NCBI GenBank assembly: GCA_963848135.1
Contig: CAWKCK010000007.1
Coordinates: 68,121 to 132,120, forward strand
Source: an uncultured delta proteobacterium
GTDB lineage: Bacteria; Desulfobacterota; Desulfobacteria; Desulfobacterales; SG8-13
Length of the DNA: 64,000 nt
Direction of reading: 5' to 3'
The notes beneath the pieces were generated by a model. It was not told where the DNA came from, ran no database searches, and saw nothing but the letters and a program-made list of their open reading frames with translations. Both the position numbers and the translations under genes were made by a program. Positions 3,161 to 47,722 of the stretch are shown here, piece by piece. Each line of letters opens with the position of its first letter. The first letter of the stretch is position 1.

Positions 3161-4144
3161 ATGAAAAAAGCGCTCATTTTGACTATCGCCATTGTATTCG
3201 GCTTCACTTTGCTGGCCGGCCTGACTCCCACTACCGTTCAGGCTGAAACCAAATTCGTCACCATTGGCACCGGCGGTGTGACCGGGGTCTATTATCCCAC
3301 CGGCGGCGCCATTTGCCGGCTGGTCAACAAGACCAGAAAAGAGCATGGCATCCGCTGCTCGGTTGAAAGCACCGGCGGCTCGGTTTATAACCTGAACACC
3401 ATTGCCGCGGGCGAGCTCGATATGGGCGTGGCCCAATCCGATTGGCAATACCACGCCTACACTGGCACCAGCAAATTCAAAGAGAAAGGGCCCAACAAGG
3501 ATCTGCGAGCGGTATTCTCGGTTCACCCCGAACCCTTCACCGTCGTCGCGCGGGCCGATTCCGGAATCAAAACGTTCAAAGACCTCAAGGGCAAAAGGGT
3601 CAACATCGGCAACCCCGGTTCGGGCCAACGCGGCACCATGGAAGTGGTCATGCAGGTTCAAGGCTGGACCAAAAAGGATTTTAAACTGGCTTCCGAGCTG
3701 AAATCGGCCGAGCAGTCCCAGGCACTGTGCGACAACAAAGTCGATGCCATGGTGTTCACGGTTGGACATCCCAGCGGCTCTATCAAGGAAGCCACCACTT
3801 CCTGCGATTCGGTCATTGTGGAAGTCGCCGGCCCGGAGATCGACGCGCTGGTCAAGGAAAACGACTACTACCGCTTTGCGACCATTCCCGGCGGGATGTA
3901 CCGTGGAACCGACACCGACACCAAGACCTTCGGTGTTGGCGCCACCTTCGTAACATCAGCCAAAATCCCGGATGATGTTATCTACTATGTGGTCAGGGCG
4001 GTATTTGAAAACTTTGACGAATTCAAGAAACTCCATCCGGCATTTGCAAACCTGAAAAAAGAAGAAATGATCAAAGACGGTCTTTCGGCGCCGTTGCACC
4101 CGGGTGCTGTGAAATACTACAAAGAAGCCGGTTTGATGAAGTAA
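3161..4144 (+). CDS. TAXI-family TRAP transporter solute-binding protein
   Basis: Signal peptide; [30 protein letters not shown] and [10 protein letters not shown] motifs; SD AGGAG. Confidence 0.95.
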
Positions 4145-4155
4145 ATCCAAACGTA

Positions 4156-4191
4156 GATAAATGTGCGCCGTCCAAACGGCGCACATTTATC
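4156..4191 (+). terminator. Perfect 16-bp stem hairpin after the binding-protein gene (terminator or mRNA stabiliser)
   Basis: GATAAATGTGCGCCGT-CCAA-ACGGCGCACATTTATC. Confidence 0.75.
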
Positions 4192-4324
4192 CTTAGTTTC
4201 GTTATTCATACTGCGGCACAGTTACAATACACATTCTTTGAAATGCGTCCGGACCGAAATTTTCGCAGCCCTCCGCGATCGACGTACAGATTAACTTCAC
4301 CCTTTCACGGGAGGAATCGTTGCA

Positions 4325-6925
4325 ATGACTGAACCTGAGATTCGCCAGGCATCTCAAGAAGAGCTCCAGGAGATGATTGCCGAAACGGATACGGGGGCCC
4401 GCAATCCCACCGGTGCGGTATCCAAAAACATCCTCTTTTTCGTACCGCTCGCATGGACCCTATTTCAGCTTTGGTATGCATCGCCACTGCCATTTATCTT
4501 CAATATCGGTGTATTTAATTCCACCGAAGCGCGCGCGATCCACCTCGCTTTTGCCATTTTTTTGTCCTTTACGGCTTATCCCTCTTTCAAGTCATCGCCC
4601 CGGAACTACATTCCTGTGCAGGACTGGGTTGTTGCGCTGATCGGAGCGTTCTGTTCGCTCTACCTGTTTATTTTTTACAATGAGTTGTCGCAACGCCCGG
4701 GCGACCCGGCCCCACAGGATCTGATTGTAGCCGTCATCGGGCTGATCGTTCTGCTGGAGGCCACTCGCCGCGCACTCGGTCCACCGCTGATGATCGTTGC
4801 CACGGTATTTATCATCTATACCTTTTTCGGTTCCTATATGCCGGACATCATCGCACACAAGGGCGCCAGCCTGAGCAAGGGCATGTCCCACTATTGGCTA
4901 TCCACCGAAGGGGTGTTCGGGGTGGCCCTTGGGGTCTCCACCGGGATGGTGTTCATGTTCGTTCTATTCGGCGCGCTGCTGGAAGCGGCCGGTGCGGGTA
5001 ACTACTTCATCCGTTCCGCGTTTGCTGGATTGGGGCACCTTCGCGGTGGACCAGCCAAAGCCGCGGTTGTCTCTTCCGGGTTAACCGGCCTGGTATCCGG
5101 GTCCTCGATTGCCAACGTGGTGACCACCGGTACTTTTACGATTCCCCTGATGAAAAAAACCGGATTTTCAGCCGAAAAAGCCGGCGCGGTGGAAGTCGCA
5201 TGCTCTACCAATGGCCAACTGATGCCCCCGGTCATGGGCGCGGCAGCCTTCCTGATGGTCGAATATGTCGGTATCTCGTACATCGAAGTGATCAAGCACG
5301 CTTTCCTGCCGGCGATTATCTCCTATATCGCCCTTGTCTACATCGTCCACCTGGAAGCCTGCAAAATGGGCCTTGAGGGAATGGAAAAACCGGTTACAAC
5401 AAAAACATTCTCTAGAAAAGTGCTCTCATTTGTCATGACCTTTCTGTTTTTGATCATCCTGGCCGGCGCTGTATACTACGGCATGGGCTGGATAAAGGTT
5501 GTTGCCGGAAACGCCACAATATACGTCGTTGCGGTACTGCTCGTCGTCGCTTATCTGCTGCTGCTCGCTTTAGCATGCAGAGTACCGGAACTGGACACCA
5601 GTACCGATATTACGGAGCTTCCAGCCCTGGGCACGACCGCCCAGGCCGGTTACTACTTTTTGCTGCCTATTGTCGTGCTGATGTGGTGCCTCGTGGTGGA
5701 ACGGCTGTCGCCGGCCCTATCTGCTTTCTGGGCCACGGTGCTGCTGATGTTTATCGTGCTTACCCAGTGGCCACTGAAAAGCTATTTCCGAAAGGTCAAG
5801 GAAGCGAGAGACAATTATTCCTTCAAACGCGGTTTCAATGAGTTGATCGAGGGTTTTGTCTCCGGCGCCCGCAATATGATCGGTATCGGTGTGGCCACCG
5901 CGGCGGCCGGCATCGTGGTCGGGACGGTGACTCTGACCGGCATTGGCCTTGTCATGACCGAGTTTGTCGAGTTCATATCGGGCGGGAGCCTGATACTGAT
6001 CCTGCTCTTTACCGCCATCATCAGCCTGATTTTGGGCATGGGATTACCGACAACGGCCAACTACATCGTCGTCTCGACCCTGATGGCCCCGGTTATCGTC
6101 AGCCTCGGCGCCAAGGCCGGCCTGATCGTGCCCCTTATCGCGGTCCACTTGTTTGTTTTCTACTTCGGCATCTTGGCGGATGACACGCCGCCGGTGGGTC
6201 TGGCGGCCTTTGCCGCGGCCGGCATATCCGGTGGCGACCCCATACGCACCGGTATCCAAGGATTTAGCTATGACATCCGCACGGCCATCCTACCGTTTAT
6301 CTTCATTTTCAACACCGAGCTTTTAATTATCGGGGTGGCAAACTGGTTCCATTTGGTGATTGTCATCGTATCGGCCATTACGGCCATGATGCTTTTCGGT
6401 GCTGCCACCCAGAATTTCTGGTTGACCAAGAATCGCATCTGGGAAACTGTCGCTCTGTTGCTGGTGGCCTTCACCCTGCTGCGGCCCGGTTTTTGGTGGG
6501 ACATGGTATTTCCACCGCTGCAAGAGGAGCCACCCGTCAAGCTCGAGCAGATGATTGAAGGGATGGCACCGGGCTCCCAGTTGATTATCGAGGTGCAAGG
6601 AGAGGACTTAAAGGGGAAACTCTTTACCAAAACGGTCATGCTGAATGTCGGCGATGAAAGCTCGGGGGCCGAAAGGCTGACCGGCATCGGACTTGAGACC
6701 CGAAATGAAGACGGCAAAATACTGGTCGACAATATCGTATTCGCCAGTTTGGCGGAAAAGGCCGGTATCGATTTCGACCAGGAGATATTGAACATTAAAG
6801 TGCCGACTGAAAGGCCGCCGAAACAGCTGATGTTCATTCCGGCATTGGTCCTTGCGGTGCTGGTCTGGTTTATGCAGCGGGGACGCAAAAAAAGACAGGA
6901 AGCACTCTCCGTTGCAACGGCGTAG
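4325..6925 (+). CDS. TRAP transporter fused 4TM/12TM permease (TAXI type) with C-terminal DUF3394-like region
   Basis: 866 aa polytopic membrane protein with GSSIANVVTTG, GQLMPPVMGAAAF, LGMGLPTTANY and DDTPPVGLAAF motifs. Confidence 0.95.
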   Translation: MTEPEIRQASQEELQEMIAETDTGARNPTGAVSKNILFFVPLAWTLFQLWYASPLPFIFNIGVFNSTEARAIHLAFAIFLSFTAYPSFKSSPRNYIPVQDWVVALIGAFCSLYLFIFYNELSQRPGDPAPQDLIVAVIGLIVLLEATRRALGPPLMIVATVFIIYTFFGSYMPDIIAHKGASLSKGMSHYWLSTEGVFGVALGVSTGMVFMFVLFGALLEAAGAGNYFIRSAFAGLGHLRGGPAKAAVVSSGLTGLVSGSSIANVVTTGTFTIPLMKKTGFSAEKAGAVEVACSTNGQLMPPVMGAAAFLMVEYVGISYIEVIKHAFLPAIISYIALVYIVHLEACKMGLEGMEKPVTTKTFSRKVLSFVMTFLFLIILAGAVYYGMGWIKVVAGNATIYVVAVLLVVAYLLLLALACRVPELDTSTDITELPALGTTAQAGYYFLLPIVVLMWCLVVERLSPALSAFWATVLLMFIVLTQWPLKSYFRKVKEARDNYSFKRGFNELIEGFVSGARNMIGIGVATAAAGIVVGTVTLTGIGLVMTEFVEFISGGSLILILLFTAIISLILGMGLPTTANYIVVSTLMAPVIVSLGAKAGLIVPLIAVHLFVFYFGILADDTPPVGLAAFAAAGISGGDPIRTGIQGFSYDIRTAILPFIFIFNTELLIIGVANWFHLVIVIVSAITAMMLFGAATQNFWLTKNRIWETVALLLVAFTLLRPGFWWDMVFPPLQEEPPVKLEQMIEGMAPGSQLIIEVQGEDLKGKLFTKTVMLNVGDESSGAERLTGIGLETRNEDGKILVDNIVFASLAEKAGIDFDQEILNIKVPTERPPKQLMFIPALVLAVLVWFMQRGRKKRQEALSVATA

Positions 6926-6981
6926 TATGAGATTCGTCTCGACGCTTTAGCCAATTCACATATCCGCATCGGGAGCAAATT

Positions 6982-7416
6982 ATGTTTAAAAAAATACTCG
7001 TACCGTTAGATATTGACTACGAAGACACTGCTGCACTGGTCTATCGAAAAGCAGCCGCTTATGCTGCTCTCAGCGGGGCCGAAATAAAATTGGTCAGCGT
7101 CATGCCAGGCTTCAGCATGCCCATCGTGGCCTCCTATTTTTCCGATGACATGCGTAAAAAAACCGCTGACAGATTCACTGCGGCGGTGGCGGAATTCGTT
7201 AAAAACCATTGCAATGAATCCGTATCCTATACCGTTAGCGTTGGAAAAAACTGGGAAGAAATCATCAAAGCGGCAGATAACTGGGGCGCGGACCTGATTG
7301 TTGTCTACCATAACCACCACCACGAAATAAATGAAGTCTTCAGCCAGAGCTGCTCTCAGAGAGTTTCGGATCATGCCAAATGCTCCGTTCTTCGACTACG
7401 AAACATTAGAGCGTAG
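6982..7416 (+). CDS. Universal stress protein (TRAP-associated)
   Basis: FKKILVPLD start, GADLIVV motif and 144 aa length. USP genes commonly follow TRAP permeases. Confidence 0.9.
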   Translation: MFKKILVPLDIDYEDTAALVYRKAAAYAALSGAEIKLVSVMPGFSMPIVASYFSDDMRKKTADRFTAAVAEFVKNHCNESVSYTVSVGKNWEEIIKAADNWGADLIVVYHNHHHEINEVFSQSCSQRVSDHAKCSVLRLRNIRA

Positions 7417-7452
7417 ACCAATTATTTCGGTTATCGCCTTGCGGAGGAGAAT

Positions 7453-8454
7453 ATGATGACCCGTAAAAACGTCAGACATCATTTCACCATCCGGTTAATG
7501 ATTCACTTTGCTGTAACGTGCTCTTTCTTTTTCATTACCCTGTTGCCCATTTCCGCCAATGCTCTCGATATTCTACTCGGCACCGGTCCGGAAGGAACAT
7601 TCTCACATTTCACCGGGCGCACAATTTGCCGGATAATCAGTAAACAAGCCGAAGATATCGCCTGCAAAGCGGTTCCTACGCCCGACACCATCGACAATCT
7701 CACCAACTTGCAGGGGGGTTCCCTGGACATCAGCCTGGTCGATTCCCGCATGTTGACCGATGCGATCAACAAAACCGGCTATTTCGAATTTCTGGATATC
7801 CGCTATGATAACCTGCGCGAACTTATAGCGCTTTATGATCGGCCTTTCACACTGGTTGCGCGCAGCGATGCCGATATTACCTCGCTGGAAAAACTGAAGG
7901 GCAAACGGATCAATGCCGGCGCACCACGTTCGGAAGAGCATCTGACAACCGATGCGATATTGACCGCGAAAAACTGGACAAAGGCTGATTTCAGCCTCTT
8001 CGGAGAACTGTCGGCATCCCTGTCTCAGGACACGATGGCCTTCTGCCACGGAGAGGTAGAGGCGATGTTTCACATCGGCGTGCACCCGGATCCCTCATTG
8101 CAACAGTTACTCGAACGCTGCAAAGCTGAATTGGTGAACATGGACGACAGCGATATAATGAAACTGGTTGACAGCCAATCGGCTTTTTCCATGATCGAAA
8201 TCCCAGCGGAAATTTACCCGGCGCTTCAAAAATCCATTTCGACTTTCGGGACAACGGTGTTCCTGATCGCCTCCGGCAGCCTGGATGAACAGACCGCCTA
8301 CAAAATCATGGAGGCCCTCGACAAAAACCAGCAATACCTCAGGAACGCGCATACCGCACTGAGCGCCTTCACAGTCGAAACGGCACCGAAACGAACCGCC
8401 GGTGTCCAACGCCATCCCGGCGTAACGACATATCTATCGACACATGGAAAATAG
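7453..8454 (+). CDS. Second, divergent TAXI-family solute-binding protein
   Basis: Similar to the 3161 protein throughout (LKGKRINAG, MAFCHGEVEAM, RHPGVTTY) and has a signal peptide. Confidence 0.85.
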   Translation: MMTRKNVRHHFTIRLMIHFAVTCSFFFITLLPISANALDILLGTGPEGTFSHFTGRTICRIISKQAEDIACKAVPTPDTIDNLTNLQGGSLDISLVDSRMLTDAINKTGYFEFLDIRYDNLRELIALYDRPFTLVARSDADITSLEKLKGKRINAGAPRSEEHLTTDAILTAKNWTKADFSLFGELSASLSQDTMAFCHGEVEAMFHIGVHPDPSLQQLLERCKAELVNMDDSDIMKLVDSQSAFSMIEIPAEIYPALQKSISTFGTTVFLIASGSLDEQTAYKIMEALDKNQQYLRNAHTALSAFTVETAPKRTAGVQRHPGVTTYLSTHGK

Positions 8455-8671
8455 TCCCAATTTCTGGCCGGAAACGAACGCATTAGTGATATTTACCACC
8501 GCCATAGGCACTGCCCCCCGCCGGCTTTCCGCGTGCAAAGCGGCTATTTTGACACTGTCGGTTGATGTGGCCATTCGGTATGAAATGCGATTATGTCCCG
8601 ATTTCACCAAAGGAAACCCAGGCGACGTGTTTGGTAAATTATAGTAGGTAGGATAGAGCCGTTTCACGACG

Positions 8672-9199
8672 CTATCCTATTTGCTTGATTTGTAAGGAGA
8701 CCGTTTTTTTACCGCCTTCGGTCTCTTGTCGGCCAACCTCTTCAAACCCATATTGGCGGTGAAAAATCCGCGAAGTCTCATTTCTGGGGCGAAGGTTATA
8801 TTCGCACGCCAAAATCGGGATCTCCCGCGCACAGGCGAACTGTTCCAGATCTTTGTATAAATCGAAGGCGAGGCCTTTCCTGCGGAATTCGGAAGCAATA
8901 ATTATCCGATCGATGTAAATGAAGGCCTCAAAATGCTTTTTGAACCAGAGATAATTCGGACTCTTGTATCCGGCATGTGGATCGAAGGCGATCAAAAAAC
9001 CGGCGATTTTCTCACCTGATTTTGCAACCCGAAAGTAGACCGCTTGATTATAGAGAGGCGCCATGTCTGACAAAGAAATGGCGCCGACATGGGGTAAATT
9101 GGCCTGGTTTAACTGATACACGTCCTCTAAATCGGGGGGACGGGCATCCTTGATCGTTAAGTTCATGAAAACGGTTGTCCTACAGTGACCTATTGACAA
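8672..9199 (-). CDS. GNAT family N-acetyltransferase
   Basis: YIDRIIIASEFRRKGLA acetyl-CoA-binding motif; HRQYGFEEVG. The real start may be the Met near 9166. Confidence 0.85.
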   Translation of the reverse strand: MSIGHCRTTVFMNLTIKDARPPDLEDVYQLNQANLPHVGAISLSDMAPLYNQAVYFRVAKSGEKIAGFLIAFDPHAGYKSPNYLWFKKHFEAFIYIDRIIIASEFRRKGLAFDLYKDLEQFACAREIPILACEYNLRPRNETSRIFHRQYGFEEVGRQETEGGKKTVSLQIKQIG

Positions 9200-9527
9200 A
9201 GCCTCTAAAGCCCCGAAACGACGGATTCCGAGTGGAGAAGTCCACCAGTATGGCCATCAAAAATGGGAAGTTCAAATATTAACTTGGACCTTGACCGCTT
9301 GCCCCGCATTATGTAACGAGTGGTTGAATCTTGCAACTGGTTTCCGCCATCGGTCACCTGCCCCGGTAGAGAACCAACCGAAACGGGATTGATCGTTTCG
9401 GATTTCGCATTATACTGCTTTTCAAAAATAAATTTCGAAATACGGAAGGGTGGTATAAGTAATTGTAGAAAAAACCGTTCGGATAACGGAACGTTTTTTT
9501 GATAACCACGATAACTCTCTCTACTGC

Positions 9528-10268
9528 ATGAAAATGAAAACAAAATTTCCGAAGGTTACCCTTTTCGTTCAGTGCCTGGTTAATGGCTTGAGCCCTGAAA
9601 TCGGCGAGGCCATGGTGAAGATTTTCCGGAAGTTGAACCTGCCCATCGACTGCCCGTTGGATCAGACGTGCTGCGGGCAGCCGGCATTCAATTCCGGCTA
9701 CCGAAAGCAAGCCCGGACAGCGGCCGAGCGATTCATCCGGATCTTCGAAGGTGCCGAGGCCATCGTTTGTCCTTCGGGTTCCTGCGTTCACATGGTCCGC
9801 CGGTATTATCCCGACCTGTTCGTTGATGCACCCCATTGGCGGACAAGGGCCGAGGCCGTAGGTGCCAAGACCTTCGAGCTGACCCAGTTTCTGGTGGATG
9901 TTCTGGGGGTCGAAGATCTCGGTGCCCGTTTTAACGGCCGCCTCACCTTACACGACTCCTGCCAGGCACTCCGCGGCCTTGGCGTCCGGGAACAACCCCG
10001 ACGGCTCATTGCTCATATTGCCGGTGCCGAACTGGTGGAGATGCGCGATCCGCTTCGCTGCTGTGGATTTGGTGGATCATTTGCCGTAAAATATCCTGAA
10101 ATTTCAACCGCAATGGTCGACGACAAGGTCAGAACCATCATGGCCACGGACGCAGATGTTCTCACAGGTGTAGATCTCAGCTGCCTGACAAACATTCAGG
10201 GCCGCCTTAGCCGTCTGAAATCGACTGTCAGGGTCATGCACATCGCTGAACTTCTGGCAAGTGAATGA
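9528..10268 (+). CDS. lutA: L-lactate utilisation protein A/LldE (CCG-domain Fe-S oxidoreductase)
   Basis: QTCCGQPAFNSG, CPSGSC, HDSCQALR and CCGFGGSF motifs; first gene of an overlapping three-gene operon. Confidence 0.92.
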   Translation: MKMKTKFPKVTLFVQCLVNGLSPEIGEAMVKIFRKLNLPIDCPLDQTCCGQPAFNSGYRKQARTAAERFIRIFEGAEAIVCPSGSCVHMVRRYYPDLFVDAPHWRTRAEAVGAKTFELTQFLVDVLGVEDLGARFNGRLTLHDSCQALRGLGVREQPRRLIAHIAGAELVEMRDPLRCCGFGGSFAVKYPEISTAMVDDKVRTIMATDADVLTGVDLSCLTNIQGRLSRLKSTVRVMHIAELLASE

Positions 10269-11719
10269 CACCAAAGAAAGAAATCAGCCCCATGAACACG
10301 ATTCGCCCGGAAGAATATACATCCAGGGCCCGCGAGGCCCTCAAAGACCCGGTATTGCAAAAAGCCCTAGCGGATTTCCAGGATCGTTTGGGCAAGGGAA
10401 CCGCACGGGCCTATCGCGAACTGCCTGAAGGTCTCGGCCTACGCCAAACCGCCCATGCCATCCGCATGCAGGCTGTTGAAAACCTGGACATCCTTCTGGA
10501 AACCCTGGTGGAAAACATCCGTGAAAATGGCGGCCGCGTTATATTTGCGGAGGACGCCCTTGCGGCGGTAGCGGCCTGCATCGAAATCGCCCGCAAGCAC
10601 AATGTCAAACGGGTCGTTAAAGGTAAATCAATGGTCACCGAGGAGATCGGGCTGAACCCGGCGTTAGAGGCTGAGGGCATCGAGGTGACCGAAACCGACC
10701 TGGGGGAATACATCGTGCAACTGGCCGGAGAGTCTCCCTCCCACATCATCGCTCCGGCCATTCACAAAACCAGGGATCAGGTGGGCCGGCTCTTCGCCGA
10801 GAAACTAGGTATACCCTATACCAGCGACCCGCCGACATTGACCCGGGCGGCCCGCAAGGCACTGCGGCAGAAGTTCCTGGCCGCCGACATGGGCATTTCC
10901 GGCTGCAACATGGCCTGCGCCGAAACCGGCCACATCACGACGGTATCAAATGAAGGCAACATCCGTATGGCCACCACTCTGCCACGAGTGCATGTGGCCT
11001 TCATGGGCATGGAACGGGTCACCGCGCGCCTGGAAGATCACGATGTTCTCTTCAGACTGCTTGCCCGCGGCGCCGCGGCCCAGCACATGGCGGGCTATGT
11101 CTCCTATATTGGCGGACCACGCAAGAAGGATCAGGTAGACGGTCCCGACGACTTCTACTTGATCATCATCGACAATGGCCGATCGAAAATTCTGGCCGAC
11201 CCCGAATTTCGAGAAATCCTGTGCTGTATTCGCTGTGCGGCATGCTTGAACGTCTGCCCCGTCTATGGCAAGATCGGTGGTCACTCTTACGGCTCCGCCT
11301 ATTCCGGGCCGGTGGGCGCTGTGGTTACGCCACTGCTGGTCGGCATCGACCGCGCCAAGGATCTGTTTCTGGGAGAAACTCTCTGCGGGGCCTGCAAGGA
11401 TGCTTGCCCGGTCGACATCGACCTGCCGCGAATGCTGCTGGCCTTGCGTGCCCGTCTTGTCACCGGCGATCCGGCCTGGCAGAGTGGCGGAGGCCGCCGT
11501 GGGGAAGAAGTGTTCTACAGCGCTTGGTCGGCTGCGATCAGAAACCACCGACTATACGAGGTTTTTCAGCGAATAGCGGGCCTGACGCAAAAAGCCCTGA
11601 CCGGTAGCAACGGCATGATTCACAGCCTTCCCTACCCCTTCAACGGATGGACCCGCAGCCGTGATCTTAAGCCTCTGGCGGCAAAATCATTTCTATCCCG
11701 CTGGAAGGAAATTCGATGA
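10265..11719 (+). CDS. lutB: L-lactate utilisation protein B/LldF (Fe-S subunit)
   Basis: KGKSMVTEE, ETDLGEYI, SHIIAPAIH, CIRCAACLNVCP and CGACKDACP motifs. Confidence 0.95.
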   Translation: MTPKKEISPMNTIRPEEYTSRAREALKDPVLQKALADFQDRLGKGTARAYRELPEGLGLRQTAHAIRMQAVENLDILLETLVENIRENGGRVIFAEDALAAVAACIEIARKHNVKRVVKGKSMVTEEIGLNPALEAEGIEVTETDLGEYIVQLAGESPSHIIAPAIHKTRDQVGRLFAEKLGIPYTSDPPTLTRAARKALRQKFLAADMGISGCNMACAETGHITTVSNEGNIRMATTLPRVHVAFMGMERVTARLEDHDVLFRLLARGAAAQHMAGYVSYIGGPRKKDQVDGPDDFYLIIIDNGRSKILADPEFREILCCIRCAACLNVCPVYGKIGGHSYGSAYSGPVGAVVTPLLVGIDRAKDLFLGETLCGACKDACPVDIDLPRMLLALRARLVTGDPAWQSGGGRRGEEVFYSAWSAAIRNHRLYEVFQRIAGLTQKALTGSNGMIHSLPYPFNGWTRSRDLKPLAAKSFLSRWKEIR

Positions 11720-12489
11720 GCACCCAGGCTGCTTTCATCGCCAAGGTGACCGCTGCTTTGGGAAATCTTGGACGACCGTCAGACAGGCGCCAGGCACTTT
11801 TTCATCCCACCAGACCAGACTCAATCGGAAAGAGCCTCAGGCGAATCCCTGCACGGACGTCGACCGAACAGCTGGAGTTACTAAGCCAGCTTATCGAGCA
11901 GGGCAAACCGCTTAACCTTCGGGTCATTACAAAGAAAAACACCGCCGACACCGCCACAGCCATTGCCGAACTTGTCGGTAAAAAATCTCCCGAATGGGGA
12001 GGTCCAAAATTCGTTGTCGCCTGGCAACATCCACTGATCGAGGCGCTCGACCTAGCGCCCCTTCTGGCCGCCCGCCAAGTGACGTATTCCGCTAAGGTAC
12101 CGAGAACCGAGGGGGCCGTAGCCGAGAAAAGAGCAACAACACTCCACCGGCTTGCAACCGCCTTTGTCGGCATCACTTCGCCAGATTATTGCCTGGCCGA
12201 AACCGCTACCCTCGTTCTCAAAACCCGCCCCGCCTGCGCCAGGGCCGTTTCACTGCTGCCGACCATCCATGTAGCGGTCATCGAACTGAGGCAGGTCATC
12301 GAAAACCTGGCGGAGCTTTTTGCCCGGCTTAAATCCGATTCCAAGGAACCGATTTCCGAACTAGGTAACTGTTTGACGCTGATCACCGGCCCCAGCAAGA
12401 CCGCCGACATTGAACTGACGATGGTTCACGGAGCCCATGGCCCCCGCGAACTCTATCTTTACGTTATCGCTCCTGAAGCATTTGAATAA
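11716..12489 (+). CDS. lutC: L-lactate utilisation protein C/LldG
   Basis: LAETATLV and ITGPSKTADIE...GAHGPREL motifs. Confidence 0.92.
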   Translation: MSTQAAFIAKVTAALGNLGRPSDRRQALFHPTRPDSIGKSLRRIPARTSTEQLELLSQLIEQGKPLNLRVITKKNTADTATAIAELVGKKSPEWGGPKFVVAWQHPLIEALDLAPLLAARQVTYSAKVPRTEGAVAEKRATTLHRLATAFVGITSPDYCLAETATLVLKTRPACARAVSLLPTIHVAVIELRQVIENLAELFARLKSDSKEPISELGNCLTLITGPSKTADIELTMVHGAHGPRELYLYVIAPEAFE

Positions 12490-12517
12490 CGTGAGACGTA
12501 TCTTTTTTTCGACATCC

Positions 12518-12550
12518 ACCCTGCGATCGGCCGATCCGGTTGCAGGGAAA
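12518..12550. terminator. GC-rich hairpin after lutC
   Basis: CCCTGCGATCGG-CCGAT-CCGGTTGCAGGG followed by AAAA. Confidence 0.5.
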
Positions 12551-12664
12551 ATCCTTGACCCCGCCGCCGGCCTTGGTTATTTCTAACCTGGAACGAGCGG
12601 CATTATCCTTCTTCAACCGCTTCCGCTAAACCGGTGTCGCCCGGCATCCGATTCTTCCGCACCG

Positions 12665-13906
12665 GTGCAGCCATCGAGGTCCGGCATGCAAAATTTCAAT
12701 CCCGAACAAGCCCTGTGGGAAGCCCAGCGTGAGTTTGGCGAACACGGTGGTGTCACGCCTTCGATTTCGCGATCTTCCACATTTACGGTCATGGATCCGC
12801 GGATCATGCCCGAGATTTTCGAGGGATTGCGGGGACCGGATAAAGACGGCTGCTTTCTCTACAGCCGCCACTTCAATCCCACTGTGGATGTATTGGCCCG
12901 CTATCTGGCCGCTATGGAAGGCACCGAAAGCGCGGTTTGCACAGCCAGCGGCATGGCCGCCATATCGTGCACTCTCTTGCAGCTTTGCAACGACGGCGAT
13001 CACATCGTTGCCAGCGACACGGTCTACGGCGGCACACACGCCCTGCTGCGAGAGTTACTCCCCTCCATGGGGATTAAAACGACTTTCGTGGATCCGACTG
13101 ACCCTCAGTCCTTCGAAGCGGCCCTGACCGAAAACACGCGCGCCATATACACCGAGGCGGTCGGCAACCCCACTTTGAAGATCGCCGATATTGCCGCCCT
13201 GTCCCGGCTGGCTGAAACCCACGACGTGACACTGGTGGTGGACAATACCTTCACACCGGTCATCATATCGCCAGCTCATCTGGGTGCTCACATTGTCGTG
13301 CACTCACTGACCAAATTCGTCAACGGTGCCAGTGACGCCATCGCCGGTGCTATCTGCGCCGATAAAGCCTTTGTCCGACAATTGATGGATCTTCATACTG
13401 GAAGAGTTATGCTACTGGGGCCGACCATGGATCCGCGCGTGGCCTATGACATCATTCAGAGACTGCCCCACCTCCCTCTACGAATGCGTGAACATGGTGC
13501 CCGGGCAATGATATTCGCGGCGAGGCTCCATGAAATGGGCGTCCGCGTATCATATCCCGGTCTGCCGAATCACCCGCAGTACCGTCTTATGAGTCGCAGC
13601 ATCAATGAAGGCTACGGTTACGGCGGCATGTTGACCATAGACTGCCTCACCCGGGAGAAAGCCGAAGACCTGATGGATATTCTGCAAAACAAGGAACGTT
13701 TCGGATTTATAGCGGTGTCCTTGGGATATTATGATACACTGCTCTCCTGCTCAAGCTCATCGACCTCCTCGGAAGTTCCACCGGAAGACCAAAACAAAAT
13801 CGGTTTGTCTCCCGGTCTTGTGCGGGTTTCGGTCGGCCTGACCGGGAGCCTGATCGCACGTCTGGAACAGCTCGAAAGAGCCGTGATGAAGGTGGGACTG
13901 GTATAA
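12665..13906 (+). CDS. Cys/Met-metabolism PLP enzyme, methionine gamma-lyase-like (plant-type N-terminus)
   Basis: EFGEHGGV, YSRHFNPT, ASGMAAI, YGGT, VDNTF and HSLTKF (PLP-Lys) motifs; VRVSVG. Confidence 0.9.
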   Translation: MQPSRSGMQNFNPEQALWEAQREFGEHGGVTPSISRSSTFTVMDPRIMPEIFEGLRGPDKDGCFLYSRHFNPTVDVLARYLAAMEGTESAVCTASGMAAISCTLLQLCNDGDHIVASDTVYGGTHALLRELLPSMGIKTTFVDPTDPQSFEAALTENTRAIYTEAVGNPTLKIADIAALSRLAETHDVTLVVDNTFTPVIISPAHLGAHIVVHSLTKFVNGASDAIAGAICADKAFVRQLMDLHTGRVMLLGPTMDPRVAYDIIQRLPHLPLRMREHGARAMIFAARLHEMGVRVSYPGLPNHPQYRLMSRSINEGYGYGGMLTIDCLTREKAEDLMDILQNKERFGFIAVSLGYYDTLLSCSSSSTSSEVPPEDQNKIGLSPGLVRVSVGLTGSLIARLEQLERAVMKVGLV

Positions 13907-13917
13907 ATGCCGTCCCT

Positions 13918-14943
13918 TTGTCAGAGGATCTGACCCGCAGGTTAATAATTCTGATGGAATCCAAGCGTCAAGACATTTTTCGAGACATCGTCGGCGAAAG
14001 CGCATCGATGATAGAAATATTTGACATCATCGAACGTATTGCCGACAGCGACACAACGATCATTATCAATGGAGAAACCGGTACCGGTAAAGGCGTAATC
14101 GCCAGAGCCATTCATCAGCGTTCGCACCGATATAAAGGTCCCTTCGTTCAGATCAACTGCGGCGCAATATCCGAAGGACTTCTGGAAAGCGAATTGTTCG
14201 GCCATGTCAAAGGTGCCTTTACCGGCGCCCTGTCCGATAAACCGGGTAAATTCGAACAAGCCCGGGGAGGTACTATATTTCTGGATGAAATCGGTGACAT
14301 GAGCCCGGATTTGCAGATCAAAGTCCTACGCGTACTGGAAGAAAACGAATTCGAACGGGTCGGCGGACTGCAGACCATCAAAGCTGATGTCAGGATCATC
14401 GCCGCCACCCATCGCGACCTGGAAGAGGAAGTCCAGAAAGGCAACTTCCGCGAAGATCTATTTTACCGCTTGTATGTCATTCCGGTGGTTCTCGCTCCCT
14501 TGAAGAAACGTAAATCAGACATTCCGCTGCTGATCTCTTATTTTATGGAAAATATCAGTCAGGCCAAGGGGCGCAAACCGGCTGAAATAGCTCCTGAAAC
14601 ATTGACGCACCTGCTCAACCACCAATGGCCCGGAAACGTGAGGGAGTTGCGGAACCTCATCGAACGGTTGGTGGTATTGAATGAAAGCGGAACGATTCAA
14701 CCCGGAGAGCTGCCGGAGAATATCCGGGGCATTAACCGTCCGGTGCTTCAGCCGCAGTTTGAAATCCATGCCGACGGCCTCGATTTCAACATGGCGGTCA
14801 CCGAGTATGAAAAGGAACTGATTCTCCAGGCCCTGGAAAAAACCAACTGGGTGAAAAACAGGGCCGCGGAATTGTTGCAGATCAAGCGGACCACCCTGGT
14901 TGAAAAAATTAAGCGTTACCGAATAGACAAAGAAAACAAGTAA
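13918..14943 (+). CDS. Sigma-54-dependent activator (AAA+ plus Fis HTH) with no N-terminal sensory domain
   Basis: GETGTGK, ESELFGHVKGAFTGA, FLDEIG, FREDLFYRL, WPGNVREL; C-terminal NRAAELLQIKRTTL HTH. The start codon is uncertain (13918 or ~13954). Confidence 0.9.
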   Translation: MSEDLTRRLIILMESKRQDIFRDIVGESASMIEIFDIIERIADSDTTIIINGETGTGKGVIARAIHQRSHRYKGPFVQINCGAISEGLLESELFGHVKGAFTGALSDKPGKFEQARGGTIFLDEIGDMSPDLQIKVLRVLEENEFERVGGLQTIKADVRIIAATHRDLEEEVQKGNFREDLFYRLYVIPVVLAPLKKRKSDIPLLISYFMENISQAKGRKPAEIAPETLTHLLNHQWPGNVRELRNLIERLVVLNESGTIQPGELPENIRGINRPVLQPQFEIHADGLDFNMAVTEYEKELILQALEKTNWVKNRAAELLQIKRTTLVEKIKRYRIDKENK

Positions 14944-14999
14944 AGACCCCTTCGGCGTCGTCTTGGAGATGGTCCTCTTGCCGGCGGTTCGGTTTTATT

Positions 15000-16178
15000 T
15001 TGGAGGCATTTATGAATAGCGTTGATATTCTTTTTGTTGACGATGACAAAGCGATTCTGAGCATGGTGGAGAGATACCTGACGCGAGAAGGATACCCGGT
15101 GCAGTTGATCGACAGCGGTAGAAAGGCTCTCGAACTGTTAAAGAAAAAGCATTTCGACATCGTCTTCACGGACTTTAAAATGCCTGAATTCGACGGTATA
15201 GAGCTGTTGTCGGCAATCAAGGAGTATCGACCGGAAACCGAGGTTGTCATCGTTACCGGCCACGGAACCATGGAAACGGCTATAAGAGCCATGAAAATCG
15301 GCAGCTACGATTATCTCCAGAAGCCGTTCAAACTGGATTTACTGAAAATGATAGTGGACCGGATCGCCGAGGAAAAGCACCTCAAAGATGAAAGAGCCGT
15401 GTTGAAAACCAGGGTCAAGGAAAGGCACCGCTACGATGCACTGGTCGGGATCAGCCTCCGGATGCAGGAAATCTTTGAGAGTATCGACCGCATGAAGAGC
15501 AGCAGCCCCAACGTGTTGATAACCGGTGAAAGCGGCACCGGTAAAGAGCTGGCCGCCCGGGTCATTCACCGTAACAGCGATCGGGGCCGGCATCCATTCA
15601 TTCCGATCACTTGCCGGACTTTCCTTAAGGATCTGTCCGGGGATGAAGTGATATATTACCTGTCCCAGCTGCTCGATTCTTCCGACGGAGGGACCCTGTA
15701 TCTGGATGAGATTACCGATATCGCCCCACCGGTTCAAGGAGAATTCGTCCGGGCACTAAATCCGGTGGCAGCCGCCACCGGTCAATCGAAAACCCGCCGC
15801 GAATACAGCATCCGGGTGATCGGCGCGACCAGCAAAGACCTCAAAAACGCCGTCGAAGGAGAATTGATACGCCGGAATTTTTTCAATTTTGTAAACGCTG
15901 TCGCCGTAAACATGCCGCCCCTAAGAGATCGCAAGGAAGATATCTGCCTGCTGATCAACCATTTTCTGCATACATACAACTTGAAACACACCCGTCAGGT
16001 GTTTACGGTTGCGCCGGACGCTTTGTCCTATCTACTGCGGTACCATTGGCCGGGAAACGTCATCCAGTTGGAAACCGTCATCGAAAGGGCTTTTGCCCTG
16101 GGTGTGGACACCGTCATCGAAATCTCAGACCTGCCGGCGGAGATTAAAACCTTCGGCGATATATCGAAAATGGGCTGA
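15000..16178 (+). CDS. Response regulator with degenerate sigma-54 AAA+ domain (no GAFTGA, no HTH)
   Basis: REC domain (VDDD, TDFKMP), GESGTGKE, LYLDEI and WPGNVIQL. The GAFTGA loop is absent and the protein ends just after the AAA domain. Confidence 0.85.
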   Translation: MEAFMNSVDILFVDDDKAILSMVERYLTREGYPVQLIDSGRKALELLKKKHFDIVFTDFKMPEFDGIELLSAIKEYRPETEVVIVTGHGTMETAIRAMKIGSYDYLQKPFKLDLLKMIVDRIAEEKHLKDERAVLKTRVKERHRYDALVGISLRMQEIFESIDRMKSSSPNVLITGESGTGKELAARVIHRNSDRGRHPFIPITCRTFLKDLSGDEVIYYLSQLLDSSDGGTLYLDEITDIAPPVQGEFVRALNPVAAATGQSKTRREYSIRVIGATSKDLKNAVEGELIRRNFFNFVNAVAVNMPPLRDRKEDICLLINHFLHTYNLKHTRQVFTVAPDALSYLLRYHWPGNVIQLETVIERAFALGVDTVIEISDLPAEIKTFGDISKMG

Positions 16179-16207
16179 ATCTGACTTCGATTTTGAGGTG
16201 ACTTCTA

Positions 16208-16366
16208 CCTGAGTTGAGCGATTTTTGAGGAAGCGATGTGCTGAGTTCTTGTTCATCAAGGGCCTGCGCCAACCGCAGGCATACCCATGGCTATGTCGAG
16301 GATTGGCACAAGCCCTTGATGGGCAATAGATGGGTGCAGCGCGAGTCAAAAATCGCTCAAATTAGG
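16208..16366. repeat. Palindromic MITE/REP-like element
   Basis: Terminal IR CCTGAGTTGAGCGATTTTTGA / TCAAAAATCGCTCAAATTAGG (19/21); inner IR CATCAAGGGC/GCCCTTGATG; central hairpin GCCTGCG-CCAAC-CGCAGGC. Confidence 0.8.
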
Positions 16367-16406
16367 TTCTAGCGTCAAGAAACATTCAACCCGAAAGGAG
16401 GCCAAA

Positions 16407-16886: not shown

Positions 16887-19064
16887 TTAGACCGTTTCCT
16901 CTACGGTGGTGGTACCCTTCTCTTCACTGACACCGACGACTTCGGCCGCAACCAAATCCCCCCAATCCTCTCTGTACATGCCTTTTCGAACGATTTCGAA
17001 CATCACGAGCAACAGGTCGTTAACGGGCAGGGTTAGCGAGGATTCGGAAAACCGTTTTATCAGCCGTGCATCTCTTTCAGAAGCTTTTTTGAGCGTCTCC
17101 AGGGTACTGAGCAGTTTGAATCCCTGAGCGCTTCCCTTATGCTCAGACGCGACCCACTTCTCTTTGAGTTGGGTTATCTTGTGGCGCGGTGCGACAATCA
17201 GGGCCCGGCGGATCTTATCATTGTTAAGGACTTTTTGCTGTTTGACGATGCGGACAATGCGTCGGTCGAGGGTCTCCTTTTCATCCCTTATTTCCTGACC
17301 GAGCATGGATTGAATGCTGTTGGTCAGGTCGATCTTAACCATTTTTAGAATGTCTTCTTTTTCATTGAATTTTTTCCTGATTTCAGCTTGAGCGCTGTGC
17401 CAGAACATCCGGCTGGCATTTTTGAAGAGCTCGATCTGGGTCGCAGCATTGTCCATATTTTTAAGCATCAATGACTTGATCCCGATGATCAGCTTGCCGG
17501 TTTGGTCGTAAAGACGCTCGCCGGTAATAATTTCATAGGCGATCGCTACCGCTGCGTGCAAGTCCTGGAGGTGTAAGATGCGGGCAGCATCCCGAAAACA
17601 GGTCGCCAGCGCTATATTGGGAATCAGGTGCGACGGTGTGGCATAGTTGGGTGTTCCCCCCAGAATCGGTTGCGGGACCTGATTTCCTGCCGCGGCACTG
17701 TATACCACGGCTGTTTCCACATCTATCAGACCGATCGAGTAGTCCGAAATCGCATCGAGAAATTCCGGATACCTGGTCTTGTCTCCAGCGATCAGAAGAT
17801 TGTCGGGTTTCATGTCACGCATGGCAACGCCTTTGTTCCGCAACCAGGCAACCAGATCGAGCAAGTTTGTCACCAGACCGGCAATCTGATGGTTGTTCTG
17901 GCTGACGGTCACCGCCTGAACACAGCCCCGGATTGTCCGGCGATAGCCGTTAACGATATCCTTGTGTTCAGTAAAAGTATTCCGTAACAGTTGGTTGACC
18001 TTTTCGATAGCATCCGGTTTCAGATCCTTTTCTCCGACCTCGAGTTCTCTTCCGGACAGGTGGATCAGAAACCACTTTTGCAGGGTAAACCGAGGCAGTT
18101 TGTACTTTCCTGCTTTTTTCAACACCCGGCCGGATTGTTCTTCGAACCTTTTGAAAACCGCTCGGACGGCATCTATCTCCTCATCGTTCTCCTCTGCGTA
18201 GCGGCCTTCAAAGCCGTGGTTCTCCCAAATCACATCCGGATACCCGACAATTTCCTGGTAAACCTTGTTTGACAGGTCGTGGACGTCGTTGATGATATGG
18301 CTGAGGAAAAAATAGCGGGATAAATCCATTACAAACACGTATGAATTGCCAATTTTCAGATGGCCCTGGAACGACGGATACTTTCTTAACCAATCGAGAT
18401 ACTTGTCTTCCAATTCGGCTGGCGTCAGCTTCTTCCCTTCCGAAAAGGGATGAATGATTCGCATCACCGCAGATACCGTTGGAACGATACACTCTCGTGG
18501 TGCGACCCTTCGGACAATTCGGTGGTCAGACTCGATGGCGGATATGTAAGCGGCAAAGTTCGTAATCGGTTTCTGAAGGATCTTGACGATGTAATGATCA
18601 TCGTAGATGACATGAAAACATTTGCTCCGGCTGGTACTGTCGTCCCCGGCAAGTCCGATTGTCATCCGCCGGGAGACCCATTGCTTGTTATGAAACACCT
18701 GCAGTTCATATGTTTTTTTCGGACTGCCGGCCGCGGCATCCAACGCCATGAATTTAGATTTGGCTTCCTTGGGCTCACCGAGCTGTACCTTAAATATTCT
18801 CAGGAAGAACGCAACAATGTCATCCTGTTCGATCTGCGCGACTTCCCCGATTGGCTCTAACATTTCTCCGGTAATCGTTTCAGGAGCCTCTTGTTCTTCC
18901 TTCACCGCTTGTGGGGGTTTTCGACGTTTTGACAAGACCAGAAGAATCAGAAGCAGAACGGCCCCCAGCGCGGCCAGAACCACAACTCCGGTGTGGTCAC
19001 CTGTCACCGGAACCTTGGCCAGGAGCTGATCGATCTCTTTGAATTTTTCGATAAATTTATCCAT
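16887..19064 (-). CDS. Membrane-anchored protein-kinase-like hypothetical protein
   Basis: N-terminal TM (VVVLAALGAVLLLILLVL); catalytic-loop-like MRDMKPDNLLI, IDVET (DFG-equivalent), GTPNYATP and DLHAA. Confidence 0.7.
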   Translation of the reverse strand: MDKFIEKFKEIDQLLAKVPVTGDHTGVVVLAALGAVLLLILLVLSKRRKPPQAVKEEQEAPETITGEMLEPIGEVAQIEQDDIVAFFLRIFKVQLGEPKEAKSKFMALDAAAGSPKKTYELQVFHNKQWVSRRMTIGLAGDDSTSRSKCFHVIYDDHYIVKILQKPITNFAAYISAIESDHRIVRRVAPRECIVPTVSAVMRIIHPFSEGKKLTPAELEDKYLDWLRKYPSFQGHLKIGNSYVFVMDLSRYFFLSHIINDVHDLSNKVYQEIVGYPDVIWENHGFEGRYAEENDEEIDAVRAVFKRFEEQSGRVLKKAGKYKLPRFTLQKWFLIHLSGRELEVGEKDLKPDAIEKVNQLLRNTFTEHKDIVNGYRRTIRGCVQAVTVSQNNHQIAGLVTNLLDLVAWLRNKGVAMRDMKPDNLLIAGDKTRYPEFLDAISDYSIGLIDVETAVVYSAAAGNQVPQPILGGTPNYATPSHLIPNIALATCFRDAARILHLQDLHAAVAIAYEIITGERLYDQTGKLIIGIKSLMLKNMDNAATQIELFKNASRMFWHSAQAEIRKKFNEKEDILKMVKIDLTNSIQSMLGQEIRDEKETLDRRIVRIVKQQKVLNNDKIRRALIVAPRHKITQLKEKWVASEHKGSAQGFKLLSTLETLKKASERDARLIKRFSESSLTLPVNDLLLVMFEIVRKGMYREDWGDLVAAEVVGVSEEKGTTTVEETV

Positions 19065-19703: not shown

Positions 19704-20228
19704 ATGGCAAAGCTTTCCGACAACCTGGCGCACAACCGCCAGTCAGAAGACCCGAACCTTTTTACGGGACCGCATACGGTTGAATCCAATGATTGGATTG
19801 ACACGGCACCTTTTGGACGACTGCTTCACCTGAAAATTATCGAGGCAAACAACGGCACGGCAGTGCTAACCATGCCCTTTCTTTTCGATTTCGCCCAAGG
19901 CAGTGGATTTATGCACGGCGGCGCCCTGGTAAGCCTGGCAGATACGGCCACGGTTATGGCTATAAAAAGCCTGGTCCCAGAGGGGACGCACTTTGCGACC
20001 ATTTCCCTGAAAACGAATTTTCTCTATCCCGTGAAGAGAGGTATCATCACTGCCAAGGCTCGCGTGACGGCGCATCGGAAAAACCACCTTTACGGCCGAG
20101 TGACGATTTTCAATCAGGAGGATCGACCCGTCTTGGAATTCAGGGCCACCTTCAAAATAGGTAAAAACAGAGAGATCAAAGCCGGTAGCCGTCCAACCGT
20201 CAAAAACCCGGCAGAGCGCTCCGATTGA
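19704..20228 (+). CDS. PaaI family thioesterase
   Basis: FMHGGALVSLADTA hotdog-fold motif. Confidence 0.9.
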   Translation: MAKLSDNLAHNRQSEDPNLFTGPHTVESNDWIDTAPFGRLLHLKIIEANNGTAVLTMPFLFDFAQGSGFMHGGALVSLADTATVMAIKSLVPEGTHFATISLKTNFLYPVKRGIITAKARVTAHRKNHLYGRVTIFNQEDRPVLEFRATFKIGKNREIKAGSRPTVKNPAERSD

Positions 20229-43004: not shown

Positions 43005-43021
43005 TTGGCACACATCATGCT
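43005..43021 (+). promoter_or_regulatory. Sigma-54 -24/-12 promoter
   Basis: TTGGCACACATCATGCT (GG-N10-GC). Confidence 0.8.
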
Positions 43022-47706: not shown

Positions 47707-47722
47707 TGGCATGGTATATGCT
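47707..47722 (+). promoter_or_regulatory. Sigma-54 -24/-12 promoter
   Basis: TGGCATGGTATATGCT (GG-N10-GC) upstream of the second ZraP-like gene. Confidence 0.75.

Follow-up and report, generated by a model that had tools for sequence, protein, structure and literature searches.

Two neighbouring genes in a 64,000-nucleotide stretch of DNA (hereafter the window; part of contig C7, GenBank CAWKCK010000007.1, from a Desulfobacterales genome of 6.03 Mb) were found to form a real and conserved pair of sigma-54 activator relatives, or bacterial enhancer-binding proteins (bEBPs), with complementary losses. Gene 1 encodes a sensor-less activator with a complete AAA+ motor and a DNA-binding domain. 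Gene 2, downstream on the same strand, encodes a two-component receiver joined to a degenerate AAA+ module and ends without a DNA-binding domain. Sigma-54 activators are textbook homo-oligomeric machines that carry the input, motor and DNA-binding parts on one chain. Judged from sequence, gene 2 may instead serve as a signal-receiving regulatory subunit for the gene 1 activator, a reading to which we give a probability of about 0.5 and whose mechanism is plausible. The complementarity had been pointed out for this locus in an earlier note and proved to be family-wide, as it extends across 119 gene 2 orthologues. New are the single origin of the degenerate gene 2 family, its basal unpaired lineages, the sister relationship of gene 1 to a flagellar regulator and the conserved C-terminal tail of gene 2.

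The gene 1 reading frame was supported by Pfam domains, motifs and orthologues, and its elements were placed by motif position:

13918-14943, plus strand: gene 1, AAA+ domain and Fis-type helix-turn-helix (HTH)
14071-14094, plus strand: Walker A, GETGTGKG
14212-14229, plus strand: GAFTGA loop
14278-14295, plus strand: Walker B, FLDEIG
14446-14472, plus strand: finger motif FREDLFYRL with both finger arginines present
14632-14655, plus strand: sensor II, GNVRELRN, with its arginine present
14857-14919, plus strand: HTH recognition region

Counted from the TTG at 13918 the protein has 341 aa; the true start is probably the ATG at 13954, which is better conserved among orthologues. Pfam detected a full-length Sigma54_activat domain (1.3e-71), AAA_lid_14 and HTH_8 (3.7e-14, residues 295-334) and no domain N-terminal of the AAA+ module. 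These matches and the motif positions agree with the earlier description of gene 1 as having an intact GAFTGA loop, arginine finger and HTH but no input domain. The protein is therefore predicted to be equipped for enhancer binding, ATPase ring formation and remodelling of sigma-54 RNA polymerase, without an input domain of its own. Sigma-54 itself is encoded in the source genome (a 482-aa open reading frame with the RpoN box ARRTVAKYR on contig C18). A sensor domain hidden upstream by a frameshift, which had been raised as a possibility, was rejected: the upstream gene for a pyridoxal phosphate (PLP)-dependent enzyme is complete and ends at 13906, which leaves no room for such a domain, and the orthologues are sensor-less as well. 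The gene 1 orthologues have 328-375 aa, and none of those examined carries an N-terminal domain. Long open frames upstream of gene 1 in two genomes (G446 and G516) consist of 73% G+C DNA and were not taken as real N-terminal extensions. The ratio of nonsynonymous to synonymous substitution rates (Ka/Ks) of gene 1 was 0.06. At one locus (L035; G650:C37, 8100-9300) gene 1 is split by a single frameshift, although its halves are otherwise undamaged and gene 2 is whole; either an assembly error or recent pseudogenization would account for the split.

Gene 2 was compared with 119 orthologues (56-89% identity) in an alignment that also held gene 1 and two canonical paralogues from the same genome, and the invariance of its residues was scored over 52 aligned orthologues. 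Its features were as follows:

15002-15006, plus strand: ribosome-binding site GGAGG, kept in all 15 loci compared
15012-16178, plus strand: gene 2, receiver and degenerate AAA+ module, 388 aa, no DNA-binding domain (Pfam, orthologues, structural model)
15036-15329, plus strand: receiver signature, D10-D12 (15036-15047), phospho-acceptor D54 (15171-15173), T82 and K104
15369-15437, plus strand: linker between receiver and AAA+ module (AlphaFold helix, NtrC1 alignment)
15525-15548, plus strand: intact Walker A, GESGTGKE; G172, E173, G175, G177 and K178 invariant
15654-15677, plus strand: deletion of the L1 tip, 11 residues, KGAFTGAxxxK gone (gap columns in at least 95% of the 119 orthologues)
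15699-15716, plus strand: retained Walker B, YLDEIT; E233 nearly invariant, D232 in 80-95% of orthologues
15759-15803, plus strand: unconserved remnant of L2 and the pre-sensor-I region (conservation 0.38, the lowest in the protein)
15867-15893, plus strand: degenerate finger motif IRRNFFNFV (NtrC1 alignment, family consensus)
16053-16076, plus strand: degenerate sensor II, GNVIQLET, with Ile351 in place of arginine; I351, Q352 and L353 invariant
16128-16175, plus strand: conserved C-terminal tail DLPAEIKTFGDISKMG (conservation 0.77)

The start of gene 2 is the ATG at 15012 and not the TTG at 15000, with the GGAGG lying 6-8 nt before the ATG in 15 of 15 loci, so the gap between the two genes, earlier given as 56 bp, is 68 bp. 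Pfam detected Response_reg (6.2e-31), a Sigma54_activat match split into two stretches, and AAA_lid_14; HTH_8 was not found. Together with the orthologue alignment this bore out the earlier view of a phosphorylatable receiver and Walker A and B motifs in a protein without GAFTGA and without HTH. The receiver residues D10-D12, D54, T82 and K104 are all invariant. In the AlphaFold model (predicted local distance difference test score, pLDDT, 84.8) the linker and receiver helix 5 form one long helix spanning residues 108-137. The alignment to NtrC1 continues through the linker, in which R138 and H139 are invariant. The closest solved structures to gene 2 were the inactive dimer state of NtrC1 (1NY5, 4L4U; E 2e-76), followed by NtrX.

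The AAA+ module of gene 2 probably still binds ATP, as Walker A, Walker B and sensor I (T273, invariant or nearly so) are all kept. The remaining working parts are altered. In the model a continuous helix (residues 211-224) replaces the L1 hairpin, and the 11-residue deletion is common to lineages in which gene 2 is unpaired. L2 is predicted to be disordered, with pLDDT below 50 for residues 253-261. With L1 deleted and L2 degenerate, gene 2 would be unable to touch sigma-54. In the HMMER alignment F293 of gene 2 lies opposite R299 of NtrC1, the second arginine of FREDLYYRL, which is the trans-acting finger equivalent to R168 of PspF (PMC7175178). The earlier observation that IRRNFFNFV stands in place of the finger motif thus held for the trans-acting arginine, which is lost, but not for the first arginine (R287), which is kept in the gene 2 of the window. 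The consensus of the gene 2 family at this motif is LNRDFFNCI, with a cysteine at the position of the trans-acting arginine. Without that arginine gene 2 should be unable to complete the active site of a neighbouring subunit, and without the sensor II arginine it should be unable to close its own in the normal way. Among the 42 bEBP-like proteins of the genome, gene 2 alone lacks the sensor II arginine. Finally, the protein ends 16 residues past the lid, where a linker and HTH would otherwise follow, and all orthologues end alike; lacking an HTH, it is predicted to be unable to bind DNA. The C-terminal tail is kept in the unpaired lineages and in divergent representatives of the family. One 401-aa protein (P0131) joins a canonical receiver-AAA+ N-terminal half, intact GAFTGA included, to a C-terminal half that resembles gene 2 in its degenerate finger motif, its GNVIQLE sequence, its FGEI tail and its lack of an HTH. 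Either recombination or a chimeric assembly would explain it.

Conservation along gene 2 was high in the receiver (mean 0.79), the linker (0.72), the Walker A half of the AAA+ module (0.79), the lid (0.78) and the tail (0.77). It was lowest in the remnants of L1 (0.47) and L2 (0.38), the former sigma-54-contact loops. The losses are invariant or nearly so in the 119 orthologues and are present in divergent representatives too. In the three comparisons with unsaturated Ks (loci L013-L015), Ka/Ks was 0.09-0.13 for the whole gene and 0.10-0.18 for the AAA+ core; against L024, where Ks is saturated, it was 0.145 overall and 0.198 for the core, and in more distant comparisons Ks was saturated or undefined. 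Gene 2 is a maintained protein under purifying selection and not a remnant.

The distribution of the two genes links them further. Among 41 relatives, 18 carried both genes and 23 carried neither. In an even sample of 401 Desulfobacterales genomes, 48 encoded a degenerate gene 2 protein. When the co-occurrence set, the locus comparisons and this order-level survey were pooled, 38 genomes, drawn from seven families (f1, f11, f17, f19, f22, f139 and f181), had gene 1 immediately upstream of gene 2 and in the same orientation; the genome with the frameshifted gene 1 is among them. The pair was also present on 2 metagenome contigs, and in 4 cases pairing was undecidable with gene 2 at a contig edge. 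The flanks of the pair differ between groups: LutABC, the PLP enzyme, a HIT protein and a kinase-like protein surround it in the source genus, and a DinG-like helicase, MarR and DsrE2-TusA-DsrMK-like genes in f11 and f181. Perfect co-occurrence and adjacency despite changing flanks support a functional coupling of genes 1 and 2. Conservation of synteny and of domain loss, which had been suggested as a check on the pairing, was thus found in 38 genomes and in 119 orthologues, respectively.

The family is narrow in its distribution. A sample of 401 genomes from across the phylum gave matches at E ≤ 1e-95 in only 4, including the source genome and two genomes whose match is a canonical relative with an HTH, and when about 15 billion proteins were clustered at 50% the gene 2 family shrank to about five representatives. 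The gene 2 family is compact and largely confined to Desulfobacterales. Above 50% identity no gene 2 orthologue with an HTH was found; the relatives that do carry one make up a sister clade of their own.

Trees were calculated for the AAA+ domains of all bEBPs of the source genome and of the fetched loci, and a separate careful tree was made for the gene 2 clade. The degenerate gene 2 proteins form one clade (support 100/99), whose sister consists of canonical receiver-AAA+(GSFTGA)-HTH proteins (joint clade 99/98). These canonical sisters keep GN(V/I)RQLE at sensor II and share the tail ERAFALGV...DLPxEI with the gene 2 family. As the degenerate proteins are a single clade beside canonical activators, the degeneration happened once. 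Within the clade the paired lineage is monophyletic (99/98) and the proteins of f138, f161 and f98 branch basally, so that linkage to gene 1 would be either derived or lost at the base of the clade. Genes 1 and 2 were not each other's closest paralogues in the AAA+ tree. Instead, the gene 1 clade (support 97) is sister to the sensor-less activator of the genome's own flagellar cluster, with which gene 1 has the recognition helix RTTLVEKIKR in common. That activator precedes a canonical receiver-bEBP and flgB-flgC-fliE-fliF.

The flagellar cluster extends over C4:122114-142030 and contains the sensor-less FlrA-like activator (C4:127369-128457) together with the canonical receiver-bEBP. Canonical gene 2 relatives, with GSFTGA or GAFTGA, an HTH and sensor II, adjoin a flagellar-type sensor-less activator in three other genomes (G270, G429 and G454), in reverse gene order. 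At one of these loci (L027; G270:C7, 2368-8942) the canonical relative, with GSFTGA and HTH, is flanked by a divergent HDOD-PAS-HisKA-HATPase-REC hybrid kinase and by the flagellar-type activator, and CheB-like, CheY-like and PilZ genes are found in the vicinity. The same trees contained three near-identical bEBP genes of 742-763 aa on small contigs of the source genome (C12:49005-51233, C13:18082-20310 and C14:18160-20451; tree distance ≤0.008), which suggests a recently multiplied or mobile segment.

These features can be assembled into a proposed mechanism. In the unphosphorylated state the receiver dimer of gene 2 would hold its AAA+ modules off ring assembly, as in NtrC1 and DctD. An unlinked kinase would phosphorylate D54 and so release the gene 2 AAA+ module, which could then dock on gene 1 protomers through ordinary AAA+ inter-subunit surfaces. 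Once docked, gene 2 would alter the assembly or the ATPase cycle of the gene 1 ring. Gene 2 is an orphan receiver in this locus. No histidine kinase was found within about 10 kb of the pair in the window, in line with the earlier remark that no cognate kinase is adjacent, and a crude scan for H-box and G2-box motifs in 12 pair-bearing loci turned up a single weak G2-box match but nothing that was clearly a histidine kinase.

Between the two directions in which a docked gene 2 could act, a switchable inhibitory ('poison' or capping) subunit is somewhat favoured over a co-activator. We lean to inhibition because gene 2 lacks the finger, sensor II and L1, and because the hetero-oligomeric activator HrpRS needs both of its GAFTGA loops for activation (PMC3105312). 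A broader version of the proposal, in which the whole gene 2 family would consist of phosphorylation-gated pseudo-ATPase subunits that insert in or cap the ring of a FlrA/FleQ-like activator, basal members acting likewise on an unlinked flagellar master regulator, is put forward only tentatively.

Several observations weigh against a dedicated partnership of gene 2 with gene 1. In 12 genomes (f138, f161 and G377 of f98) a degenerate gene 2 protein is encoded with no adjacent gene 1; in these unpaired basal members a B12-type radical SAM gene follows gene 2. Most unpaired genomes have gene 1 or a flagellar-type paralogue elsewhere, but in two of them (G445 and G785) no such gene was obtained at E ≤ 1e-105. 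As basal genomes carry gene 2 unpaired, its function would need no dedicated neighbour. Moreover, two adjacent activators can reflect a regulatory cascade, as in FlrA and FlrC. Finally, a weighted scan of the window and 12 loci for -24/-12 (sigma-54-type) promoters gave no intergenic site around the pair.

The best-surviving alternative, although somewhat unlikely, is that gene 2 works independently of gene 1, as a stand-alone response regulator whose ATP-binding pseudo-AAA+ module and conserved tail would act on another protein or more broadly on several bEBPs, and that adjacency reflects co-expression or a common regulon. The basal lineages without an adjacent gene 1, in which the radical SAM gene follows gene 2, are consistent with such an output. 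The tail, whose conservation matches that of the receiver, may indicate a docking role of its own, and the 42 bEBP-like proteins of the genome would offer alternative partners. However, once genes 1 and 2 had become adjacent they stayed so in the 38 genomes of seven families, although every other neighbour changed, and co-occurrence among the 41 relatives was perfect. In addition, AAA+ subunit interfaces are built from the nucleotide pocket and the lid, and these are what gene 2 has retained.

It is improbable that the pair represents successive steps of a cascade of the FlrA/FlrC or FleQ/FleR kind, in which gene 2, formerly a second-tier activator, would now be a phosphate sink or kinase competitor that leaves gene 1 untouched. 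Such an origin would fit the canonical gene 2 relatives that adjoin flagellar-type activators in three genomes, one of them beside the HDOD-PAS hybrid kinase, as well as the position of the gene 1 sister beside a canonical receiver-bEBP in the flagellar cluster. A phosphate sink, however, needs only a receiver, whereas the AAA+ core, lid and tail of gene 2 are under strong purifying selection and its Walker A is invariant. The gene order is also reversed relative to the canonical pairs.

That gene 2 is a decaying NtrC-type pseudogene cut by a repeat element, as the absence of several catalytic motifs and of the HTH and a mobile-looking element 29 bp past its stop might suggest, is contradicted by a Ka/Ks of about 0.1, by more than 119 orthologues of equal length with the same C-terminus and invariant losses, by relatives that have the same gene end without the element, and by the conserved ribosome-binding site.

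The targets of gene 1 are presumably distant. Since its flagellar-regulator sister has the same recognition helix, gene 1 would probably act at distant FlrA/FleQ-type enhancers and not on its neighbours. The motif GTCA-N6-TGAC has been proposed for an FlrA-like regulator of Desulfovibrio (FlrA/DVU2894-type; PMC4641369). No copy of it occurs in the window. The flagellar cluster has such sites 124 and 176 bp upstream of the strong -24/-12 promoters of a histidine kinase gene and of fliL. These sites fit the flagellar paralogue and assign no targets to gene 1. The one conserved -24/-12 match, at 19982-19997, was discarded, as it falls within the coding sequence of a 4HBT thioesterase, whose conservation it reflects. 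Farther along the window two good -24/-12 promoter-like sites were observed, at 43006-43021 (TGGCACacatcATGC) and 47707-47722 (TGGCATggtatATGC). Each precedes a Metal_resist (ZraP/CpxP/Spy-like) gene with no activator gene adjoining, and a palindrome, GGGTAATTATTACCC, lies about 180 bp upstream of the first. No link of gene 1 to these two promoters was found, as their upstream regions have no common k-mer of at least 9 bases.

The following further elements surround the pair:

12555-12584, plus strand: promoter-like TTGACC-N17-TATTTC of the sigma-70 type, identical in nine loci of the genus
12665-13906, plus strand: Cys/Met-metabolism PLP-dependent enzyme, methionine gamma-lyase-like (Cys_Met_Meta_PP 1.8e-88, residues 25-392)
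16207-16367, no strand assigned: 161-bp insert resembling a miniature inverted-repeat transposable element (MITE), with 15-bp terminal inverted repeats (16214-16228 and 16346-16360), between gene 2 and the HIT gene

The site at 12555-12584 is the probable promoter of a predicted transcript that includes the PLP-enzyme gene, gene 1 and gene 2; the remainder of the PLP-gene leader varies between the nine loci. The PLP-enzyme gene ends 12 bp ahead of the gene 1 TTG, and these two genes are neighbours in 10 of 12 loci. The gap between them gave no terminator-like site, and that between gene 1 and gene 2 contains only an unconserved 5-bp stem with a T-run (14980-14993). Terminator-like sites in the region were no commoner than in shuffled sequence. 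The three genes are therefore without a convincing terminator between them. The leader of the PLP gene (within 12489-12665) measures about 80 nt or more, with inserts of 150-300 bp in two relatives (L013 and L014). Rfam gave no match anywhere in the window, this leader included, and no riboswitch was found.

The MITE-like insert is about 70% self-complementary and begins 29 bp past the gene 2 stop. The genome holds 4 full copies of 96-97% identity (on C7, C4, C5 and C18) and partial copies. The nearest relative lacks it at this site; there 66 bp separate gene 2 from the HIT gene, and gene 2 has the same end. The insert is not part of the gene 1/gene 2 system, and the suspicion that gene 2 had been truncated next to it was not borne out, as it lies past an intact stop and the orthologues share the C-terminus.

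Farther downstream (16887-19064, minus strand) a 725-aa membrane-anchored protein is encoded that has a weak Pkinase match and the catalytic-loop-like sequence MRDMKPDNLL; in family f1 it is conserved in the neighbourhood of the pair, at 50-87% identity. The region upstream (3161-12489) encodes two TAXI-type (NMT1_3) solute-binding proteins, a fused DctM-type TRAP permease (866 aa, DUF3394) and LutA, LutB and LutC.

If gene 2 does regulate gene 1 in a mixed ring, the pair would represent a new form of AAA+ ring regulation, by a switchable dead subunit, in which the input and output of an NtrC-type regulator are split over two chains. It would also be a natural system for counting the working subunits and L1 loops that a bEBP ring needs. 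For the sulfate-reducing Desulfobacterales it points to an uncharacterised signalling input, possibly to a flagellar-type sigma-54 regulon, and a kinase signal would then be tied to a motility or surface regulon of these bacteria.

Two known regulators resemble gene 2 in overall architecture. FlgR of Helicobacter pylori and CtcC of Chlamydia are receiver-AAA+ proteins that end after the lid and have no DNA-binding domain. In contrast to gene 2, these two have GAFTGA and the catalytic residues and, acting from solution, activate sigma-54 directly. NtrX (Brucella, Caulobacter) and VpsR likewise combine a receiver with an AAA+ module without GAFTGA; however, they keep the HTH and are DNA-binding regulators at sigma-70 promoters. 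NtrX was the third-best NCBIfam match of gene 2 (NF051870, 273.8 bits against a cut-off of 600), and with a score below the equivalog cut-off and no HTH gene 2 is not predicted to be of the NtrX type. In sequence and fold the best match is NtrC1 of Aquifex aeolicus, which, like DctD of Sinorhizobium, is a negatively controlled receiver-AAA+ activator and shares with gene 2 the receiver signature and the long helical linker. NtrC1, in contrast, has GAFTGA, R299, the sensor II arginine and an HTH and acts as a homo-oligomer. In the systems PspA-PspF, HrpV-HrpS and NifL-NifA an activator that is sensor-less or separately controlled is regulated in trans by a second protein encoded nearby, as is proposed here, but PspA, HrpV and NifL are not AAA+ paralogues and have no two-component receiver.

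The closest parallels are the hetero-oligomeric bEBP pairs. FleT is an active sigma-54 activator. Our literature search returned only the three pairs HrpR/HrpS (Jovanovic et al. 2011, PMC3105312), FleQ/FleT (Poggio et al. 2005, as cited in PMC10084136 and PMC7277832) and RedR1/RedR2, and no description of a receiver-bearing bEBP partner without GAFTGA and without HTH. HrpR and HrpS of Pseudomonas syringae are likewise tandem co-transcribed bEBP paralogues that include a sensor-less DNA-binding activator, and partial degeneration of one paralogue gives them unequal roles in one hetero-hexamer. Both Hrp proteins, however, keep a GAFTGA-type loop, the catalytic arginines and the HTH, and neither has a receiver, control being exerted by HrpV and HrpG, whereas gene 2 lacks the L1 loop, the finger arginine, sensor II and the HTH and has a receiver. 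In Rhodobacter (Cereibacter) sphaeroides, as far as described in the papers cited, a DNA-binding flagellar-type activator, FleQ, is joined by an AAA+ partner without a DNA-binding domain, FleT, a co-activator that has neither an N-terminal domain nor an HTH (PMC10084136, PMC7277832). Gene 1, as the sister of a FlrA/FleQ-like regulator, corresponds to the FleQ type; gene 2 differs from FleT in its receiver and its crippled AAA+ module. A trait of hetero-oligomeric pairs is that sigma-54 contact and ATPase activity come from both partners, and by its sequence gene 2 does not share it. In HrpR/HrpS, FleQ/FleT and RedR1/RedR2, as described, both partners are working activators and none has a receiver, whereas gene 2 has a receiver and would not be a working activator.

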